Virus record (IMG/VR): IMGVR_UViG_3300029945_000585
Strand: one strand, 5' to 3'
DNA: 32,551 bases
Source: a virus
The first letter of the stretch is position 1. Every line of letters starts with the position of its first letter. Below, piece after piece: positions 9,360-24,338 of the stretch. The notes under the pieces were generated by a model. The model ran no database searches and was not told where the DNA came from. It saw only the letters and a list, made by a program, of their open reading frames with translations. Both the position numbers and the translations under genes were made by a program.

Positions 9360-9660
9360 TGCAAGACCGAGGCTTCGTAGCCCGACCGAGGGCTGGTAGC
9401 GCAGTCTTCTTCGAATGGACCGACACGTATTTTCTCGTAGCCCTACCGAAGGCGGGATGGATCGGATCACTGAATTCTGTGGATGGTATGCCAATATCTC
9501 GGTTTCTTGCCAAAGATTTTGTACAAGAAATCGGGGACGGGATATTGCTCCTGGGCAGCGTCATAGCCATCCCGCCAACGAACCGCATCATGATTGGCGC
9601 GCTGTTCGGCCATGTGACGCTCATACGCGGCGTAGCCCTCGCGGACGAACCGCTCGCCGC
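9360..9660 (-). repeat. Further decayed repeat-like units beyond the putative leader
   Basis: cgaggcttcgtagcccgaccgagggctggtagc (9365), ttttctcgtagccctaccgaaggcgggatggatcgg (9432), cgtcatagccatcccgccaacgaaccgc (9560), gcgtagccctcgcggacgaaccgc (9628). Spacing is ~63-65 bp. Confidence 0.4.
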
Positions 9661-11548: not shown

Positions 11549-11995
11549 TCACATTTCTGTCGCGAGGTCCAGAGGCCATAGAGCCGCTTCAGGAGGCGGT
11601 TGCGGTTCGCCGGGGTCAGTGCTGCCAGGAATGCCTTCTCGAACGTCTGGAGGGCCTTGCTGAGCCAGCGTTTGGCCGGTTCTGCGAACCAGCACGCCTT
11701 CGCCAATCTTGCGCGCTTGATTAAGATCGATTATCGATCCCGACATCGACCCATAAGCCCCCATGTAACCGATTGCGAGATCGCTGTATTTCGGCATGCC
11801 GAGATCGGCTAGCGTGGTGTATCCCAGCGGTAGTTCAATCGGTGTGCGATTGCGGCCACGATAGGTCGTCCAGACCGCCTTGCGCGGCTCCGCCTCCAGC
11901 AGACGGGCCGCGATGTCACGCAGGATACGCCGGGCATGATTGCGTTGGGTGCGATCGCTGGCGGCATCCTCAGCGAGGAGTTCAAAATAGCGCAT
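11549..11995 (-). CDS. CTS-like N-peptide family protein; possible R-S-E-type ART-like (YRG, GSMSGS, GEGVLV)
   Basis: MRYFELLAEDA... N-terminus. CCTAAATA then 6 nt then ATG. TTYRGRN, YGSMSGS and KIGEGVLVRR are partly consistent with Arg / S-x-S / Glu ART motifs, but the catalytic Glu register is shifted. Confidence 0.55.
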   Translation of the reverse strand: MRYFELLAEDAASDRTQRNHARRILRDIAARLLEAEPRKAVWTTYRGRNRTPIELPLGYTTLADLGMPKYSDLAIGYMGAYGSMSGSIIDLNQARKIGEGVLVRRTGQTLAQQGPPDVREGIPGSTDPGEPQPPPEAALWPLDLATEM

Positions 11996-12046
11996 GAGCG
12001 ATATTTAGGTGATCCAGCCTGCTGCCCGATCGCTTCGTCATGTCGC

Positions 12047-12610
12047 TCAGCGGTACTTCAAGCGGGCCTTGGAACCGACTTTGAAGTGTTGTTTGATCTG
12101 CTTCACTTCATCTGAGGACATAGTCCGCGCGTCTTTGTCGTACTTGTAGTCCTTAAACCGATGGTGACGGTCCGTAATCTCTTGGCCGGTATCGAATTCG
12201 TGACCGTGGCTGCGTTCAATCCAACCATGCCCGCCATACTTTTCACGCGCAATGACATCCAAAGGAACCACGCGGTTGACCTTGAGCTTTTCAAATTGAT
12301 CAGCCGGGATGAAAATTTCGCTGCTCCAACGTCCAACTGTATCATGCTCAAGAGCCGATGGATCAGCATATATCTCAGCAACAAACGCTCTCAGATAATC
12401 GTGGCCGTTAACCCAGGGTTCAACGTCACGAGTAAGGTAGATGCCCTTATGTCCCGAGCGTGGGGAAATGGACAAGGCGTTGTCCTCAGGTGCGTAGTTC
12501 GGATTGAGTTTGAAGTTGGCCTTGTTGGTGATGTGATAGAGCTTGACCGGACCAGCGGGCGTGTCCTCGTCTTCAGTCACAATCTCTATGAAGCGGCGGA
12601 TGTCGTGCAT
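12047..12610 (-). CDS. CTS-like N-peptide family protein; possible H-Y-E-type ART-like
   Basis: Start at MHDIRRFIEIVTEDE (ATG 12610). CCTAAATA then 4 nt then ATG. VKLYHITNKANF, GIYLTRD and WSSEIFIP are arranged like the YHGT/Y/E motifs of the 5080 gene. Confidence 0.55.
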   Translation of the reverse strand: MHDIRRFIEIVTEDEDTPAGPVKLYHITNKANFKLNPNYAPEDNALSISPRSGHKGIYLTRDVEPWVNGHDYLRAFVAEIYADPSALEHDTVGRWSSEIFIPADQFEKLKVNRVVPLDVIAREKYGGHGWIERSHGHEFDTGQEITDRHHRFKDYKYDKDARTMSSDEVKQIKQHFKVGSKARLKYR

Positions 12611-12639
12611 GCGATATTTAGGCACAGCCCAACAGGTCC

Positions 12640-13287
12640 TTATTTCCTCTCGCCCAGACGCAGTTTGACGTCCTGGCGGGACAGAAAATAGGTTTTGCCT
12701 TTGATGCGAACATGCGGATGCCCGAGGGTCATCGAGGTCACCACGCCGGACTGACCGCTGAGATGTCCGTAGCTCTCCCGCGCATGCTCATTGGTCCACT
12801 GATCGGTCACCGTGACCTTGGCGCCGGGCTGGAGCGTCGTGATGACCGGCGGTGGGATGTTGATCTCGACCTGTTTGACATAGGCCGGGAAGACGCAGAC
12901 CTGCCGGATGTCTTCGTTGCCGACCGCCCGGCCTTCCTTGATGACGATGCCATCATGCTGCTGGCGACAGGCGGCCAAATCGAATTGCTCGAACGTCGCG
13001 GCACTGGCCGTGGCAAACACATAGGGATTATACAGCACGATGCGGCATTGCACGGGATCGCCAAAGCGTTTCGCCATCAGTTTTGTCGGCGCGGCGTAGA
13101 GGCCATCGCCCAGCAGATATTGGCGTTTGAGTTTGGCCTGCCATCGATCGCTCAACGGGGTGCTGGTGCGGCCCTGGCCCCGCCATGCATAAAACAGCGC
13201 GGGCTGACCGGTTTGCAATTCATGCCAGGGGGTCTCCGGCGGCAAGCCCCGGACGCCCGTTTCGGCGATGATCTCATGATAGCGCAT
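12640..13287 (-). CDS. CTS-like N-peptide family protein; weak R-S-E ART-like motifs
   Basis: MRYHEIIAETG... N-terminus. TTTAAATA then 6 nt then ATG, with TTGACA 17-18 nt further upstream. ALFYAWRGQG and LYAAPT are weak Arg / S-T-S-like motifs. Confidence 0.55.
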   Translation of the reverse strand: MRYHEIIAETGVRGLPPETPWHELQTGQPALFYAWRGQGRTSTPLSDRWQAKLKRQYLLGDGLYAAPTKLMAKRFGDPVQCRIVLYNPYVFATASAATFEQFDLAACRQQHDGIVIKEGRAVGNEDIRQVCVFPAYVKQVEINIPPPVITTLQPGAKVTVTDQWTNEHARESYGHLSGQSGVVTSMTLGHPHVRIKGKTYFLSRQDVKLRLGERK

Positions 13288-13455
13288 AGGCTGTATTTAA
13301 ATCGCTGACCAGTTTTGCTGTCAAGTCTTCTTGATCGGTGTAACGAAGCGCTTAGTCGCGAAGCCGATGAACTGTGACGAGATACGTCATGCGTTTCCCG
13401 AGAGTTCTCCTCGGCATGGCGGCGCACGCTTAGGAATTGGTTTAAATAAACCTAA

Positions 13456-13812
13456 TCACGCGTCGGATCGTCGATTGAATATCGTTTTCAAAAACTTTAT
13501 GCGATCACGCGCGCTCTTGATGCCATCCAGCGCTTGGTTGTGGACGCGGCGTGGCGCAAAGCGTAATACGCCACCCAGCGCTTCCATTTCGCTCGTGAGC
13601 TTGTCTTCGAGTGCGTCCAATGCGCTATTCATAAGCTCTCGATCGTCATCTGACCAGTCGGTCATCAAGCTTGCTCCATAGTCAGCCCCATGACGGACAG
13701 ACCCGTGCTGAGCCATATAAACCGCTCGTTGCGCCTTTTCAGCCGTGATTGATGCCTCAGCCCTTCGCATGGCCTCAAGCATGGCTTTATTTGCCAGTCT
13801 CCGATTGACCAT
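13456..13812 (-). CDS. Hypothetical protein
   Basis: 118-aa ORF on the same strand as the downstream family genes. No recognisable motif. Confidence 0.35.
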   Translation of the reverse strand: MVNRRLANKAMLEAMRRAEASITAEKAQRAVYMAQHGSVRHGADYGASLMTDWSDDDRELMNSALDALEDKLTSEMEALGGVLRFAPRRVHNQALDGIKSARDRIKFLKTIFNRRSDA

Positions 13813-13932
13813 AATACAGCATCTTTTGTGAGGACGCTGAGTATTCGATCATAGCCTATTGGCTGTCAATCGCGCTGTTGAACCGTCGGCGCCTCCGGTC
13901 ACGCGGCGCGTCCACGCCAGTCTAAATATGCC

Positions 13933-14517
13933 ATGAACGATCTCAGGAAATGGATGCAATTGACGGAAGCGCTGGAACCCGATCCCATCGAGGACGAGCG
14001 GCCGGATGAGCTTGCCGAGCTATTAAGCGAATGGATCGACACTGATCCGAACATGACGGATGATTACCGTCAGCAAAAGGCGAGTTTGGCCCAGAGCCTG
14101 TTGCGCTATGACGATATCGCCGCCAAGTTCCGCGAGGTTTCCGCTCCGGTGCTCTATCGGGGGATCAGTCTGCGTAAACCGCGTTTTAACCTGGAGCAGC
14201 ATTTGCTGGTCAAGCCGCGCCGGACCGATGTGTTTGAATCGTGGACGATGCAGCGCCCGATGGCGGATTTGCATGCCATGCGCCCCTGGCTGGTGGATGC
14301 GTCGCTGCGCACCCGAACCATGAGCCGATCGGCATATCCATTCATCATTGCGGAACAAGTGGCCCGGCTGCCGATCTGGATCAATATCTCAACTTTCATG
14401 CATTGGGCGGGCAAGACCACGAATGAGGGCGAGGTCCTGGTGCGGGCCGCGCCACGGGCCTATGCCAGGGTGTATGATGCGCCACGGGTGCCAGGGATGC
14501 CAAATCGTGACAGGTGA
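13933..14517 (+). CDS. CTS-like N-peptide family protein; R-S-E clade ADP-ribosyltransferase (cholera/C3/iota/T4 Alt-ModB type)
   Basis: MNDLRKWMQLTEALE N-terminus. TCTAAATA then 4 nt then ATG. Motif 1 PVLYRGISL (aromatic-R). Motif 2 FESWT (S-x-T). Motif 3 TNEGEVLVR matches the [QE]-x-E-V-L hydrophobic catalytic loop of C3/iota/Vip2. Confidence 0.7.
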   Translation: MNDLRKWMQLTEALEPDPIEDERPDELAELLSEWIDTDPNMTDDYRQQKASLAQSLLRYDDIAAKFREVSAPVLYRGISLRKPRFNLEQHLLVKPRRTDVFESWTMQRPMADLHAMRPWLVDASLRTRTMSRSAYPFIIAEQVARLPIWINISTFMHWAGKTTNEGEVLVRAAPRAYARVYDAPRVPGMPNRDR

Positions 14518-14968
14518 TCTCAGAAAATGGCTGCGGCTGGTTGAAGCAGCAGGGTCGTTTACGCCTGAACAAGCGCGTGAAATCGGCAGTTGCGCGATTA
14601 TCGCCATGGCGCATATCACCGGACTATCCTGGGATCAGGTGTGGGAACAGGCCAAACCGTACTATACCCGCTTTGGCATGGACGCTGGCGCGATTGGTGC
14701 GACCATGCGCGAACTTGGCTGGAAATACGGCGATAAATCGAATTGGAAGCTGCTCGGTATGCCGGTTGGTCTGGCGAGTGCCAAGGCGATGACTGTCCAG
14801 CAAGCGCAGGTCTATCTGCAAGAACATGAGCCGGATGCCCGCTTGATATGCCTGATTCACGCGCGCGGTGTCCCCCATTCGATCGCGTTCGCCGATGGGC
14901 AATTTCATAATGTCGAAGGGGCATGGCGGGCCAGAATACGTTTGGCGTATTATTGCACGCAAGATTGA
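14507..14968 (+). CDS. CTS-like N-peptide family protein, GTG start overlapping the upstream stop by 11 nt; possible Cys-His (papain-like) enzyme
   Basis: GTG at 14507 gives (M)TGDLRKWLRLVEAAG, matching the family motif. Overlaps the TGA of 13933..14517 (translational coupling). GSCAIIAMAHITG and VPHSIAFADGQFHN suggest a Cys/His dyad. Confidence 0.5.
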   Translation: MTGDLRKWLRLVEAAGSFTPEQAREIGSCAIIAMAHITGLSWDQVWEQAKPYYTRFGMDAGAIGATMRELGWKYGDKSNWKLLGMPVGLASAKAMTVQQAQVYLQEHEPDARLICLIHARGVPHSIAFADGQFHNVEGAWRARIRLAYYCTQD

Positions 14969-15574: not shown

Positions 15575-15781
15575 TATCTGCCGCAAATCGTTCGCGCATT
15601 TTGTCGAACGGCAGTATCCGATATCGTGAGTAGGAGCATCGAGAGTTCTGATTGACTGAGATATATGATGCGCCCATCGTGTTCTCGGCGGTGAATTTTC
15701 ACGCGCTTAAAACATTGCAATGAAATATTTTTCGCGGCAGCAATGTTCGCAGAAGCAATCTTTGTCAAAAGGAGTCTCAAC

Positions 15782-17740
15782 ATGGCCCTCAGTCCCACAG
15801 CGAGCCTGACACCCACAGCAACAATCACTCCCACGCCAACTTTGCCAAGTCCGACTGTGACCCCAAGCCCAACCGTGACTCCGAGTCCAACCATAACTCC
15901 AAGTCCGACTGTGACTCCAAGCCCAACCATAACTCCAAGCCCAACGATGACCCCAACTGGGACGATAACTCCAAGCCCAACCATAACTCCAAGCCCAACG
16001 ATGACCCCAACTGGGACGATAACTCCAAGCCCAACGATGACCCCAAGCCCAACCATGACTCCCAGTCCGACTGTCACTCCAAGCCCAACGATGACTCCAA
16101 GCCCGACGATGACCCCAACTGGGACGATGACCCCGAGTCCAACTATAACTCCAAGCCCAACGATGACCCCAACTGGGACGATGACCCCAAGCCCAACCAT
16201 GACTCCCAGTCCGACCATAACTCCAAGTCCAACCAGAAGTATGACAGGAACTGCAACGCAGTCGCCGACCGCAACTTCGACGCCCAGCCCGACCCTGCCA
16301 TCGACAACGGTCACAAGCACGCAGAGTCTGATTATAAAGAATCCAGTCAACCAATCATTACCGGTGATTGCCCTGCCGCCGACTATCACATCGACGCTAT
16401 CGGTCACGTTAAGCCCCACGATACCGATTGCGACCCTGACTGGGACAAATACGGTCACCTCGGTCGCAACGGTCTCCGGCACACTGTCGCCCACCCTGGC
16501 CGGACAAAACATCGCGGTAGCGACTGGCACTACCCTGATGACTGGCGGCAATGCGAAAGGCAGCATTGTGAGCCTCCCGCCTCCCATCCCCGGTCCTACA
16601 CCTGCTCCGGCGACCAACATCGTAGTCAATGTCTCGGATTCGCTCACTGTGGTGGCGGGATCAAACGGCAACATCACCGTCGATGAATCAAGTGATATCA
16701 ATATTGTCGAGCAGGAAAACAGCGGGGCTTTGCTGACCATCAACGTGGCGCAAAACGTCATGGTCAGTGGCAATTTCCTGCCAAGCAGTGCGGGCACCGG
16801 ACAGGCAGACCAACTGGTCATCACGGGCGGCACCAGTGCGACCTATCAGCATTGGGGCGATACCGAATTCCAGGTCAATTCGAGCGCCAGCATCGATGCC
16901 AATCTGACCGGTTGTGGCACGTTCACATTCTCTTCGAGTACGGCGTTGCAGGTTCAAGAAGGTTGCGGAAACGGCCAAGACTTCTATGTCAGTACCGGCC
17001 TCATGGTGATCGATCAAGTCAGCAGTTTTGGTGGGTATATCTCGCTCGATTCGACGACCGATGTCAGTGCCAGCACTGGCGGCGGGCAGGTAATGTTGAT
17101 GGGGGTCACTGGTATCACGAGCTATCAGTCTTATGATGGGCATCTGCAACTATACAGCGGCACGACCTTGATGGAGTCGCTCAATGTTGATGACAAAGGC
17201 GGGTTTGGCGCGATCCAGACCGCAACCGGTGTCGAGTTGCAAACTGGATCGAGTGTCACGCCGACAAATGGAACACTGATCGCGAACACGACAACCACAA
17301 CCGAAATATCAGAAGGCTTAAACATCAATCCACAGGGACTGACATTCGATTCGATGACGTTCATTCATGATTCGTCCGGAATTATGGCCTCTGACGCAAG
17401 CACGATTACCGCCTCGGCATCCGCGTCAATTGGGTTTACGTTTACGGGCGGCTCCGACGCGGATGTGTTTGGCTGCGACGGGCTTGGGAGCAACACCGTG
17501 ATCAACTTCCATGCGTCCGATATTTTTCAGATTGCCAGTGTCAATTCGTTGAGCGATACCTTCTCATGGCAACAGGTCAGTCTCGGGAGTGAAAATGGCT
17601 TGGTCCTCACCGCGACGTCTAAAGTGAACCTATCTGAAACGACGAGCTTCTTGTTTGCCGGATACGCCTCGGCGGACATCAACACGCGATTGGTGCTAGC
17701 CGATACCACCACGGGTAGTGTCGTCACCGCCAAAGCGTGA
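15782..17740 (+). CDS. TPSPT-repeat linker protein with C-terminal beta-helix-like (adhesin/tail-spike-like) domain
   Basis: AAGGAG 8 nt upstream of ATG 15782. ~22 tandem TPSPT[VIM] hexapeptides. ~450-aa C-terminal region rich in G/S/T/N/V beta-strand repeats. No classical signal peptide seen. Confidence 0.7.
   Translation: MALSPTASLTPTATITPTPTLPSPTVTPSPTVTPSPTITPSPTVTPSPTITPSPTMTPTGTITPSPTITPSPTMTPTGTITPSPTMTPSPTMTPSPTVTPSPTMTPSPTMTPTGTMTPSPTITPSPTMTPTGTMTPSPTMTPSPTITPSPTRSMTGTATQSPTATSTPSPTLPSTTVTSTQSLIIKNPVNQSLPVIALPPTITSTLSVTLSPTIPIATLTGTNTVTSVATVSGTLSPTLAGQNIAVATGTTLMTGGNAKGSIVSLPPPIPGPTPAPATNIVVNVSDSLTVVAGSNGNITVDESSDINIVEQENSGALLTINVAQNVMVSGNFLPSSAGTGQADQLVITGGTSATYQHWGDTEFQVNSSASIDANLTGCGTFTFSSSTALQVQEGCGNGQDFYVSTGLMVIDQVSSFGGYISLDSTTDVSASTGGGQVMLMGVTGITSYQSYDGHLQLYSGTTLMESLNVDDKGGFGAIQTATGVELQTGSSVTPTNGTLIANTTTTTEISEGLNINPQGLTFDSMTFIHDSSGIMASDASTITASASASIGFTFTGGSDADVFGCDGLGSNTVINFHASDIFQIASVNSLSDTFSWQQVSLGSENGLVLTATSKVNLSETTSFLFAGYASADINTRLVLADTTTGSVVTAKA
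15845..16240 (+). repeat. Tandem 18-nt coding repeat (ACTCCAAGCCCAACCRTR...) encoding TPSPT[VIM]/TPTGT[IM] units
   Basis: Direct reading of near-identical 18-nt units. The long antisense ORF 15571..16833 (GLGV repeats) is its mirror artifact. Confidence 0.8.
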
Positions 17741-20409: not shown

Positions 20410-20736
20410 ATGGCATCGCCCAATGATACCATCATTACCCTCGCGATGGGCGGCACTCTCGTCGATAGCAGCGGCAACCAATGGACCATCACCAGTGGTG
20501 GTCAGGCAGCAGAGAATGGCGTCACGGACACCGGCACCAATCAGGTTGTCGAGATGGCTTACGTAAATGGTTTGGTGTGGCAGGAGAGTGCCGCTGGTCT
20601 AGAATTCGAACATCCGACAAAACCGATCATCATAGAGCGTCGCGATCGCATCCCGGTTGGCGCTAAAGCGGCGCCGCCAATGCCGCAATGTTTGCGCATA
20701 GTGCAGACCGAGAATTTCGATATCGGTTATCTTTAA
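20410..20736 (+). CDS. Hypothetical protein (overlaps the 3' end of the cfa fragment in antisense)
   Basis: MASPNDTIITLAMGGTLVDSSGNQWTITSGG... The 3' part may be spurious. Confidence 0.25.
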   Translation: MASPNDTIITLAMGGTLVDSSGNQWTITSGGQAAENGVTDTGTNQVVEMAYVNGLVWQESAAGLEFEHPTKPIIIERRDRIPVGAKAAPPMPQCLRIVQTENFDIGYL

Positions 20737-21078
20737 ACCGGTTCGTTCCACCGCTGGGAGAACTTCGGAGAGGGCCGGGGCATAGCCGCCAGGGAAAATA
20801 TATTTGCGGAGCCAGGGATTGGTACTGCCCGGTCCCCGGCTGCGCCCGATCGCATGGATAAGCGCGATGCCATCCGGTTTCAGACAGCGGTGGATCGCAT
20901 CGAAGTACGCTTGATAATGGCCGATCCCGACATGTTCGAACATGCCGACCGAGACGACGCGATCGAAGGTCCCGGTGATCGCCCGGTAATCCAGCAACCG
21001 GAAGTGCACACACTCGGCCAAACCCGCCGCCTCGGCCCGGCCGCGCGCCTCGCTGAGTTGTTCGGCTGACAAGGTGAT
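20599..21078 (-). pseudogene. cfa: Cyclopropane-fatty-acyl-phospholipid synthase (CFA synthase family methyltransferase), C-terminal fragment
   Basis: ITLSAEQ...DYRAITGTFDRVVSVGMFEHVG..YQAYF....LKPDGIALIHAI are CMAS-family motifs. Homology begins abruptly at the ITLS codon (top at 21078). Confidence 0.7.
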
Positions 21079-21219
21079 CGACCGACCACAACATCCCGGC
21101 GCCAGGGGCATTCTGCGCACGGGATCGGCATGCAAAAATCATTCATCTTCACGCTCCCATCACAGCTATTGTTCGAACAGTGGTTTTCGGTAGGATCACG
21201 ACAGTTGGAAGGGTTACCC

Positions 21220-23528: not shown

Positions 23529-23717
23529 AACCAACATCCTTGAAAGACAGGATGTTCATACCACGTTCGAAGCGTTTGTCAACTGAATTGGTTCGGAATC
23601 GGACAGACTGCTGTGTGCTTAATTAGTTTAGGTTGGTCGGGTAGCCAGGAAATCCGCGTACTGTCCAAGACGGCCGCCACGCCCTCGCAGGCTTCGGTTT
23701 GGCCCAGGTTCGGGCTT

Positions 23718-24338
23718 CCCCGTTACCTGGGCGCCATACTCACGGGCCAGCGTCAAGGCCATGCCGCCCCAGCCACAGCCGATATCGAGCACGTGTAAAT
23801 CAGATCGATCGAGGCGTAATTTGGCGGCGATGCGATGTTTCTTCGCGGTCTGGGCTTCGTCCAAGGTTTCGTCGCCGCGTGCGAAATAGCCGCAGGAATA
23901 TTGCCGGTCCCGATCGAGGAACAGACTGTAGAGACGCCCATTCAGATCGTAATGGTGCGCCACATTGCGTTGGGCGCGCGCGACGGGATTGTACTGCGTG
24001 AGTGTGCGCAGAAGGTTCGCCAGCCATTGGCGAACCCGAAACATCGGATGGCTGGTCGGATCACGCTCTAGATTGGTCAGCAGCACGTGCAGCACGTCGT
24101 AGATGCTGTCGCCGCGCTCGCAATCCACGGTGATGCTTCCGTCCATGTAGCCCTCGCCCAGCCCCAGGGAGGGGTTCAGCACCAAGCGGCGAATGGTTCG
24201 CTGATCATGCACTTTGAATTTGGCGCGAGGCATGCCCCCATGTTGCCCGTAGCCGGTCTGCGATCCATCGGGCCAAACGACGGTTAACCGCCCGACGACA
24301 ACGAGACGTCTGAAGAGGTGATCCAGAATCTGTTGCAT
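23718..24338 (-). pseudogene. cfa: CFA synthase N-terminal fragment (through the SAM-binding motif VLDIGCGWGGMALTLAREYGAQVTG)
   Basis: N-terminal ...WPDGS... and the VLDIGCGWGG motif I. Reading continues into non-homologous inserted sequence before a stop at 23628. Confidence 0.7.

Follow-up and report, generated by a model that had tools for sequence, protein, structure and literature searches.

How does a gene begin when it lacks a Shine-Dalgarno (SD) sequence and carries in its place the short element (C/T)TAAATA, a few nucleotides before its ATG? This question is raised by a 32,551-nt stretch of viral DNA (IMG/VR virus record IMGVR_UViG_3300029945_000585), which was analysed over its full length and is here termed the window. 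A preliminary description, made from the sequence alone, had read the element either as a T4-like late promoter core that yields leaderless mRNAs or as the conserved 5' edge of a recombining cassette; the two readings are mutually compatible, and indirect evidence supports both. On balance we lean towards an interpretation in which a late promoter, a leaderless start and a capsid-targeting propeptide would together constitute a portable module on hypervariable genes for injected proteins.

The TAAATA box and the start codons of the window

Boxes with an ATG at a defined distance, and the open reading frames (ORFs) that they precede, are as follows.

11993–12008, minus strand: box CCTAAATA (CTAAATA), 6-nt spacer tcgctc, ATG 11995 of ORF A
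12608–12621, minus strand: box CCTAAATA (CTAAATA), 4-nt spacer tcgc, ATG 12610 of ORF B
13285–13300, minus strand: box TTTAAATA (TTAAATA), 6-nt spacer cagcct, ATG 13287 of ORF C
13922–13935, plus strand: box TCTAAATA (CTAAATA), 4-nt spacer tgcc, ATG 13933 of ORF D
25897–25912, plus strand: box TCTAAATA (CTAAATA), 6-nt spacer atcgct, ATG 25910 of ORF E
4393–4407, plus strand: CTAAATA box, 5-nt spacer cttgc, ATG 4405 of ORF H
5045–5082, plus strand: TTAAATA box (5046), 28-nt leader with GAGGA, ATG 5080 of ORF F (leadered)
480–522, plus strand: TTAAATA box (481), 33-nt leader with GGAGG, ATG of a 65-aa ORF (leadered)

All six instances named in the preliminary description were found in place and as described, while a further one, CTAAATA-cttgc-ATG at 4405, had been overlooked. 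The distance of 4–6 nt that it gave for the element applies to six ATGs; it does not apply to the gene at 5080, where 28 nt including GAGGA lie between box and start. Twelve TAAATA hexamers occur in the window, six with an ATG at 4–6 nt and two more with an ATG at 28 and 33 nt, and the leadered box at 481 with its 65-aa ORF directly follows a giant virion-protein gene. The enrichment check that had been proposed was run on the window, and the box near starts lies well above composition-based shuffles: YTAAATA was observed 11 times in 32.5 kb against 2.0 expected (0 of 100 dinucleotide-preserving shuffles reached 11), and TAAATA-N3-8-ATG six times against 0.5 expected (0 of 100 shuffles reached six). 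All six box-abutting ATGs are ORF starts that were also chosen by the gene caller of the public collection. The proposal that the box replaces an SD sequence was upheld, since these genes lack one and most of the remaining genes of the window have G-rich SD-like sequences before their start, so that the absence represents a real contrast. Box and spacing of ORF D are unchanged across an upstream indel between strains; the strain variants of the window (L001–L014 and L028–L032) are too alike to test conservation.

Translational coupling through the TAA inside the box was considered and rejected, as the upstream stop codons are 22–40 nt away. Separately, the palindrome GGTTTAAATAAACC at 13438–13451 includes a box and lies between the stop of ORF 13456–13812 (minus strand) and the start of ORF C; ORF 13456–13812 has a good sigma-70-like promoter (TTGACA-18-AATACT, 13869–13840).

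Box-to-ATG distances in relatives and T4-type late promoters

Relatives were collected from IMG/VR by two pattern scans, both of which combined the box with a short N-terminal peptide (termed the head, see below). The first employed an RRWM-type head (true members in viral contigs of 11–152 kb) and the second the head MRYxEhhxE, where h is hydrophobic (82 stretches, 67 unique, in viral contigs of 32–57% GC and up to 561 kb). Together they yielded well over a hundred distinct candidate genes and more than 100 further examples of the head beyond the window. Distances between TAAATA and the ATG were measured for ORFs of 50 aa or more, and in related phage DNA they are bimodal, with a sharp peak at 4–6 nt (the leaderless class) and a broad hump at about 19–35 nt (leadered sites). 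In the window and its high-GC relatives, distances of 4, 5 and 6 nt were found 9, 11 and 6 times, respectively, distances of 0–3 and 7–10 nt not once, and the second hump lies at 24–37 nt; at 79 IMG/VR loci, with the search seeds excluded, the corresponding counts are 16, 31 and 2, with the second hump at 19–34 nt. Against a background of about 2.75 sites per distance, the peak at 4 and 5 nt in the 79 loci has a Poisson p of 4e-22, and control hexamers gave no peak at 4–6 nt before an ATG.

Among 131 leaderless-class sites the spacer measures 5 nt in 69, 4 nt in 50 and 6 nt in 12, the modal length thus being 5 nt. The start codon at this distance is ATG in 131 of 136 cases, with no SD sequence and only the 4–6 nt between box and ATG. 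The base before TAAATA at the 131 sites is A in 70, C in 42, G in 15 and T in four; the preliminary form [CT]TAAATA fits the window, but because the preceding base in relatives is mostly A or C, the core is TAAATA. Leadered sites have T at −3 and A or C at −1 of the box, resembling TATAAATA or CTAAATA, and 52 of 82 carry SD-like 4-mers; such SD-like leaders stand before virion and other genes. Past the box of these sites, bases +1 to +5 are G-poor and mainly T or A, followed by a switch to purine at +6, which is the position occupied by the A of the ATG in the commonest leaderless arrangement (the 5-nt spacer).

Regarding the genes that carry the box elsewhere, for which structural or late genes had been suggested, relatives indeed include virion and portal genes: box and leader lie upstream of a gene for a virion structural protein (L019), of a portal gene (L043) and of gp151, a structural gene, in PA5oct. 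Within the window, the box at 481 behind the giant virion gene is the sole case of this kind. Besides its virion protein, L019 encodes a gp32-like single-stranded DNA-binding protein (SSB) and a UvsX that shares 52% identity with the PA5oct one. The box is also found before neck and sheath genes in one cyanophage and before a tRNA gene in another, T4-like, cyanophage. A conserved −35 element is absent, the upstream sequences being unrelated between lineages; a scan for sigma-70-type promoters at box-abutting starts returned nothing, and no stem-loop or terminator-like hairpin was detected at the junctions.

These features were compared with T4-type late promoters. The late box of T4, TATAAATA, spans −13 to −6, and the T4-like phage Aeh1 has the late promoter CTAAATA from −12 (PMC1524935); in the jumbo phages CBB and GAP32, structural genes are preceded by ATAAATA, and a gp55-like sigma factor is present in CBB (PMC5259590). 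The likeness to the T4 late core that had been noted earlier was borne out, with (C/T)TAAATA matching TATAAATA at 6–7 of 8 positions and CTAAATA being identical to the published Aeh1 variant. The known promoters (T4, Aeh1, CBB/GAP32) and the present boxes share the sequence, the lack of a −35 element, the position before virion genes (here in relatives) and, as predicted for the boxes here, 5 nt from box to +1. This published geometry matches the spacing of 4–6 nt, and in the modal class the A of the ATG would be +1. In the known cases consulted, however, the box lies about 25–35 nt before the ATG with an SD sequence between them, whereas here it abuts the ATG; T4-type late promoters with the ATG at +1 were not found as a systematic class in the literature searched or in sampled cultured genomes.

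According to the mechanism that we propose, (C/T)TAAATA would be the core of a T4-type late promoter, i.e. a −10-region box without a −35 element. Where 4–6 nt part the box from the ATG, the transcript would begin at the A of the start codon or beside it, and the product would be a leaderless late mRNA that needs no SD sequence. Leaderless mRNAs are known from lambda cI (transcribed from PRM) and are common in Actinobacteria and Deinococcus. They resemble the present genes in having a −10-type element at a fixed short distance from the ATG, no SD sequence and a strong preference for ATG; they differ in that the promoter proposed here is a phage late-type box coupled to a particular N-terminal peptide.

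The box could instead act at the RNA level, as an A/U-rich non-SD element bound by the ribosome or S1 within longer polycistronic mRNAs, rather than as a promoter. It does occupy the usual place of the SD sequence in genes without one, and ORFs A, B and C, which are co-oriented and closely spaced, could form an operon. Such a translation signal is nevertheless improbable, as it explains neither the hump at 19–35 nt, with SD-like sequence between box and ATG, nor the purine switch at +6; moreover, the box equals known late promoters in sequence and, in the T4-like cyanophage, precedes a gene for a tRNA.

N-terminal heads, putative injected proteins and possible exchange of cassettes

The ORFs behind the boxes, with their heads, are listed below, together with one head-bearing ORF that has no box.

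11549–11995, minus strand: ORF A, 148 aa, head MRYFELLAE followed by D, no family match
12047–12610, minus strand: ORF B, 187 aa, head MHDIRRFIEIVTE followed by D
12640–13287, minus strand: ORF C, 215 aa, head MRYHEIIAE followed by T, closest to MKTYQEFIAE of T4 IPII/IPIII
13933–14517, plus strand: ORF D, 194 aa, head MNDLRKWMQLTE followed by A
25910–26281, plus strand: ORF E, 123 aa, head MHVFRKWMRLFE followed by A, then a WYHGT motif, no Pfam match
4405–4659, plus strand: ORF H, 84 aa, head MTLRELLQITE followed by R
5080–5838, plus strand: ORF F, 252 aa, head MSIRAWMRLVE followed by A, then an ART-PolyVal ADP-ribosyltransferase domain
14507–14968, plus strand: head-bearing ORF, head GDLRKWLRLVEA (V-TGDLRKWLRLVEA...), GTG start, no box

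The preliminary description had spoken of a family, every member of which has the box. As a protein family this does not hold, since only the first 9–13 residues are common and the remainder of the proteins is unrelated; BLASTP similarity among the box-bearing ORFs is confined to the first 9–16 residues, and they are not paralogs. Most head-bearing ORFs do have the box, the exception being ORF 14507–14968, which overlaps the 3' end of ORF D and whose head is fused to the end of D; this ORF has lost its own ATG and box. ORF F matched Pfam family PF18760 (ART-PolyVal; 85.6 bits against a gathering cut-off of 31.2, E 7e-24), while the other box-bearing ORFs had no Pfam or PHROG match. A single distant homolog of ORF D was found (70% identical, in L015), and it too has TAAATA-N5-ATG and a head, MESDLRRWMRLVE.

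The conserved N-terminal peptide itself had been overlooked previously and, by its sequence, looks like a T4-type capsid targeting sequence (CTS). In T4, these are propeptides of 10–19 residues that direct proteins to the prohead core and that gp21 cleaves off after L/I-x-E (PMC9026906), and the T-even internal proteins (IPs) are diverse defence proteins with only the CTS in common (PMC3012670). The heads of the window terminate in IAE, LAE, VTE, LTE, LFE, LVE or ITE, i.e. in hydrophobic-x-Glu, corresponding to the prohead-protease motif L/I-x-E. According to the T4 genome record, the relevant N-termini of T4 are MKTYQEFIAE (IPII/IPIII), MKTFKEFTS... (IPI), MELITELFDE (Alt), MLKEQLIAE (gp22), MAKINELLRE (gp24) and MNEPQLLIE (gp21). 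MRYHEIIAE differs from MKTYQEFIAE by the deletion of one residue and conservative changes, and retains the positions reported to be important for targeting (Y, F/I) and processing (I, E); similarly, MELITELFDE of Alt is resembled by MLIESLFRED and MLMYELFE in relatives. Head codons vary synonymously between copies while the peptide is constant, indicating that the peptide itself is under selection.

Association of heads with the leaderless arrangement was assessed by defining a head as hydrophobic-x-E at positions 7–14 with at least two hydrophobic residues before it. Heads are present in 26 of 61 unseeded leaderless-class ORFs compared to 57 of 665 controls, a 5-fold enrichment (p 4e-11), and compared to 10 of 118 leadered ORFs (p 2e-7). 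Furthermore, a 66-aa MRY-head gene with ggTAAATAttaatATG lies between portal and Peptidase_S77 (gp21-type) genes in at least eight IMG/VR contigs, the Peptidase_S77 gene being about 1.2 kb away in contigs of the L043 type. Its homolog in PA5oct, gp150 (MKINDIITE..., 45% identical along the entire length), has an annotation recording its detection in virions with mass spectrometry (ESI-MS/MS).

We suppose that the head, a 9–13-residue amphipathic N-terminal peptide ending in hydrophobic-x-Glu, acts as a T4-like CTS. Through it the protein would become docked to the prohead core, and a gp21-type prohead protease would cut after the Glu; the mature protein would stay in the head and be injected with the DNA, the ART-PolyVal ADP-ribosyltransferase being an example of such cargo. 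The analogy to IPI, IPII, IPIII and Alt of T4 extends to several features: these are likewise unrelated, hypervariable small proteins with only a short propeptide in common that ends in hydrophobic-x-Glu; the IP genes are clustered with repeated 5' junctions, ipII and ipIII sharing about 90 nt upstream in addition to the CTS; and Alt is, according to a note in the T4 record, a packaged ADP-ribosyltransferase. Conversely, Alt has TATAAATA 28 nt upstream of its start whereas the box here abuts the ATG, and several classes of head occur here (MRYxEIIxE, MxxDLRRWMRLVE and MKMRxIIRIVE), for which packaging and cleavage are presumed.

ART-PolyVal domains also occur in polyvalent proteins of phages and conjugative elements, which are delivered together with DNA. 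The best cultured-phage match of the ORF F domain is part of a 1262-aa polyvalent protein (gp225) of Tunturiibacter phage Tunturi_5 (L027, 19416–23204), an Acidobacteria jumbo phage, where it is encoded immediately before the portal gene. ART-PolyVal domains are thus known from phage proteins beside a portal gene; the difference is that ORF F is a stand-alone protein of 252 aa with a targeting-like head rather than a segment of a protein exceeding 1000 aa. No TAAATA-N3-8-ATG site was found in 40 kb of Tunturi_5. In Dickeya phage JA13 (L115, 4401–6368), four adjacent genes including an ART-PolyVal homolog have one different common head (MQIVFSLSK, MELLISLSK, MQVLISLSK and MQILVSLSN), which suggests lineage-specific targeting-like peptides in another jumbo phage genus.

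The reading of the box as the edge of a recombining cassette was corroborated by repeated junctions between adjacent unrelated genes in L015 and L025 and by decayed orphan heads. In L015, the homolog of ORF D resides within a tandem array of unrelated genes, three junctions of which are mutually homologous over about 90 nt and contain TAAATA-N5-ATG and MES/NDLRRWMRLVE. Within lineages (L015, L016 and L025), junction homology reaches 30–45 nt upstream of the box, and the unit repeated before adjacent unrelated genes in L015 and L025 comprises these 30–45 nt together with the box and roughly the first 13 codons. Decayed heads in L021 (7901, 9868 and 10705) include a 37-aa MRYHEIIGE orphan and two tandem heads before one gene; the same locus contains a stump of five codons (MENGI) with a frameshifted ART-like ORF behind it. 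A T7-like promoter, suggested by CGACTCAC in L015, was dismissed, as that sequence is confined to one lineage, with no copy in the window or in other relatives.

T-even IP loci are described as flanked by regulatory elements that promote shuffling (PMC2839356). These elements and the PeSLs, mobile regulatory cassettes of T4-type phages (Arbiol 2010; Repoila 1994, cited there), resemble the present junctions in being short conserved regulatory sequences that flank variable genes and permit modular shuffling. PeSLs differ in consisting of a non-coding early promoter and a stem-loop, whereas a late-type box and a coding head are found here; the early sigma-70-like promoter and stem-loop that define PeSLs are lacking at the junctions. 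Under the proposed mechanism, box, leaderless start and targeting peptide would make up a unit of some 50 nt that could be placed before any cargo gene and would serve as a homology patch for cassette exchange. That box and head are a mere conserved cassette edge, maintained by recent descent or gene conversion and devoid of regulatory or targeting function, seems highly improbable to us. Lineage-specific junction homology (CGACTCAC...TAAATA in L015, GGTTAGCACA..GTATG..TAAATA in L025/L016) and the existence of orphan, tandem and decayed heads would fit such an edge; however, the hexamer, the 4–6-nt spacing and the head pattern persist at 32–57% GC with unrelated flanks, the peptide is kept through synonymous codon differences, and boxes before headless genes as well as heads without a box occur.

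The same signature was identified in bacterial genomes, where a scan for box and MRY head gave 11 matches. These include three families of genes of 68–91 aa with TAAATA-N4-5-ATG and MRYxE(I/L)xxE heads in genomes of 59–68% GC, the loci belonging to Sphingobium, Croceicoccus, Novosphingobium, Phenylobacterium, Caulobacteraceae and Acidobacteriaceae (L119–L123, L126, L127 and L129). Where neighbours were scanned (L119, L122 and L123), the genes lie beside serine recombinases, a tyrosine integrase, a C5-methylase and a phage lysozyme, and they may be prophage or satellite genes.

This occurrence bears on an alternative according to which TAAATA is a −10-like element for the host RNA polymerase with its primary or another non-gp55 sigma factor, yielding transcripts that are leaderless and not late-specific. 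Early synthesis of the head proteins would then supply anti-defence or takeover factors that act in the cytoplasm, and the peptide would have another function, for instance in stability or in the efficiency with which leaderless mRNA is translated. The signature is found in bacterial mobile elements beside integrases and serine recombinases, in genomes of 59–68% GC that are unlikely to have a gp55 system, the IP loci of T4 are tied to early-promoter-based cassettes (PMC2839356), and a perfect TTGACA lies 19 nt upstream of the TAAATA of ORF C. We nevertheless regard this alternative as unlikely: the final −10 position of TAAATA is not a T, no conserved −35 exists and the sigma-70 scan was empty at the starts, while the motif is identical to published T4-like late variants and precedes portal and virion genes in relatives. 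Additionally, matches to the heads are found at the N-termini of T4 prohead-protease substrates, and the head-bearing PA5oct homolog gp150 is annotated as a virion protein.

A number of results weigh against the interpretation as a late, leaderless and capsid-targeting module. The bacterial copies, in genomes where no T4-type late machinery is expected, weaken a strictly gp55-dependent version of it, and a tblastn search with T4 gp55 gave no match in the retrieved loci of relatives, in the window or in the roughly 6 kb to its left, the last two being what could be reached of a phage genome of at least 273 kb. No start with TAAATA-N4-6-ATG was seen in about 54 kb of T4 or in sampled parts of two cyanophages, PA5oct and Tunturi_5. 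Downstream of the box, T4 late promoters are rich in AT, in contrast to the GC-rich spacers found here. Roughly half of the ORFs in the leaderless class are headless (HNH, GIY-YIG and SGNH-like genes), so that box and head can be uncoupled, and the similarity of the heads depends on very short peptides. Finally, the T4 IP genes have a leader with the SD sequence AAAGGAAA, carry early-promoter-based cassettes (PMC2839356) and have no adjacent late box.

The components of the module are each known, while their fusion into a leaderless promoter with a targeting peptide, and its breadth, appear undescribed: the literature searched, which was incomplete, contained neither leaderless late transcripts in T4-like or jumbo phages nor CTS-like families in uncultured phages. 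If correct, the module would mean that the T4 late promoter type is used in an undescribed way, to make leaderless mRNAs, which bears on how phages translate in the late phase of infection and on how genes are called in phage metagenomes. Box and head would also provide a cheap sequence tag for packaged or injected proteins, otherwise unrecognisable ORFans in uncultured jumbo phages, a class rich in anti-defence and host-takeover functions (precedents being IPI and Alt of T4, with the ART-PolyVal enzyme here). A further suggestion, for engineering, is a minimal module of some 50 nt with which foreign proteins could be loaded into the capsids of non-model phages. A wider generalisation, namely that TAAATA-N4-6-ATG with M-[RK]-x-x-E-h-h-x-E (or DLRRWMRLVE) is a portable late, leaderless and capsid-loading tag across a very large uncultured clade of T4-related and jumbo phages, is put forward with considerable doubt. 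Were it true, pattern matching alone would list the whole arsenal of injected proteins of these phages, and bacterial copies by recombinases would mark satellites or prophage-like elements that tap the late transcription and capsid of a helper.

Origin and neighbouring features of the window

Judged by its gene content, the source of the window is an uncultured jumbo phage that is distantly related to the Rak2/PA5oct/CBB group and the T4 superfamily, and is not cellular. The feature by which it was recognised as jumbo-phage DNA lies at the left end.

1–487, plus strand: 3' end of a virion structural protein gene (3549 aa), phrog_10938, E 2e-94

The last 2026 residues of this 3549-aa protein match PHROG 10938 ('virion structural protein', E 2e-94), and tblastn matched these residues to the giant virion proteins of 121Q and PBECO4, two Rak2-like jumbo phages, as well as to those of PA5oct and CBB. 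DNA near-identical to the window sits at the end of a 259-kb contig from a peat metagenome, from which the genome size of at least about 273 kb was derived. A cellular origin had first been suggested by the cas genes, a cfa gene and a glycosyltransferase, together with the lack of a phage megablast match, and was rejected in view of the giant virion-protein match and the 259-kb contig. Rfam and tRNA scans of the window gave no matches, nor did an exact 37-mer find the window's own genome in IMG/VR.

Just downstream of the giant virion gene, 1320–3842 encodes an 840-aa protein with major-vault-protein (MVP) shoulder and repeat domains (PF11978, E 5e-18), for which a close-relative search in IMG/VR retrieved no relatives. 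It prompted consideration of the heads as vault or encapsulin cargo peptides, an idea that was abandoned as there is no co-occurrence, head-bearing related loci being without an MVP protein.

Type I-C cas3 (26285–28669, minus strand), cas5, cas8c and cas7 are present and directly followed by a CRISPR array at 32195–32551, with a 37-nt repeat (GTTTCATCCGTCCTTCGGGACGGGTGTGGATTGCAAC) in at least five copies and spacers of 33–35 nt, which runs off the end of the window. As no cas1, cas2 or cas4 was found within the window, the genes and array represent an interference-only system carried by the phage. A second CRISPR-like array at 8326–9217, which is not adjacent to cas genes, has a 36-nt repeat (GTTTTCGTAGCCACCCAACGATAGGGTGACTGCACC) in 13 well-kept copies with spacers of 26–30 nt. 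Many decayed copies of its core TTTTCGTAGCC are spread over about 4.8 kb (4626–9432), 40 on the plus and four on the minus strand. ORFs listed within this region are probably spurious, and the public gene caller made no calls over approximately 6472–9468.

The gene for a cyclopropane-fatty-acid synthase (CMAS) is split into an N-terminal part at 23628–24338 and a C-terminal part at 20599–21135 (both minus strand), parted by about 2.5 kb containing a DUF7694 ORF and two unknown ORFs. Lastly, an 18-nt tandem repeat of about 21 copies (15845–16233) lies inside ORF 15743–17740, the length of which varies by strain, with 665 aa here compared to 499 aa in L007.

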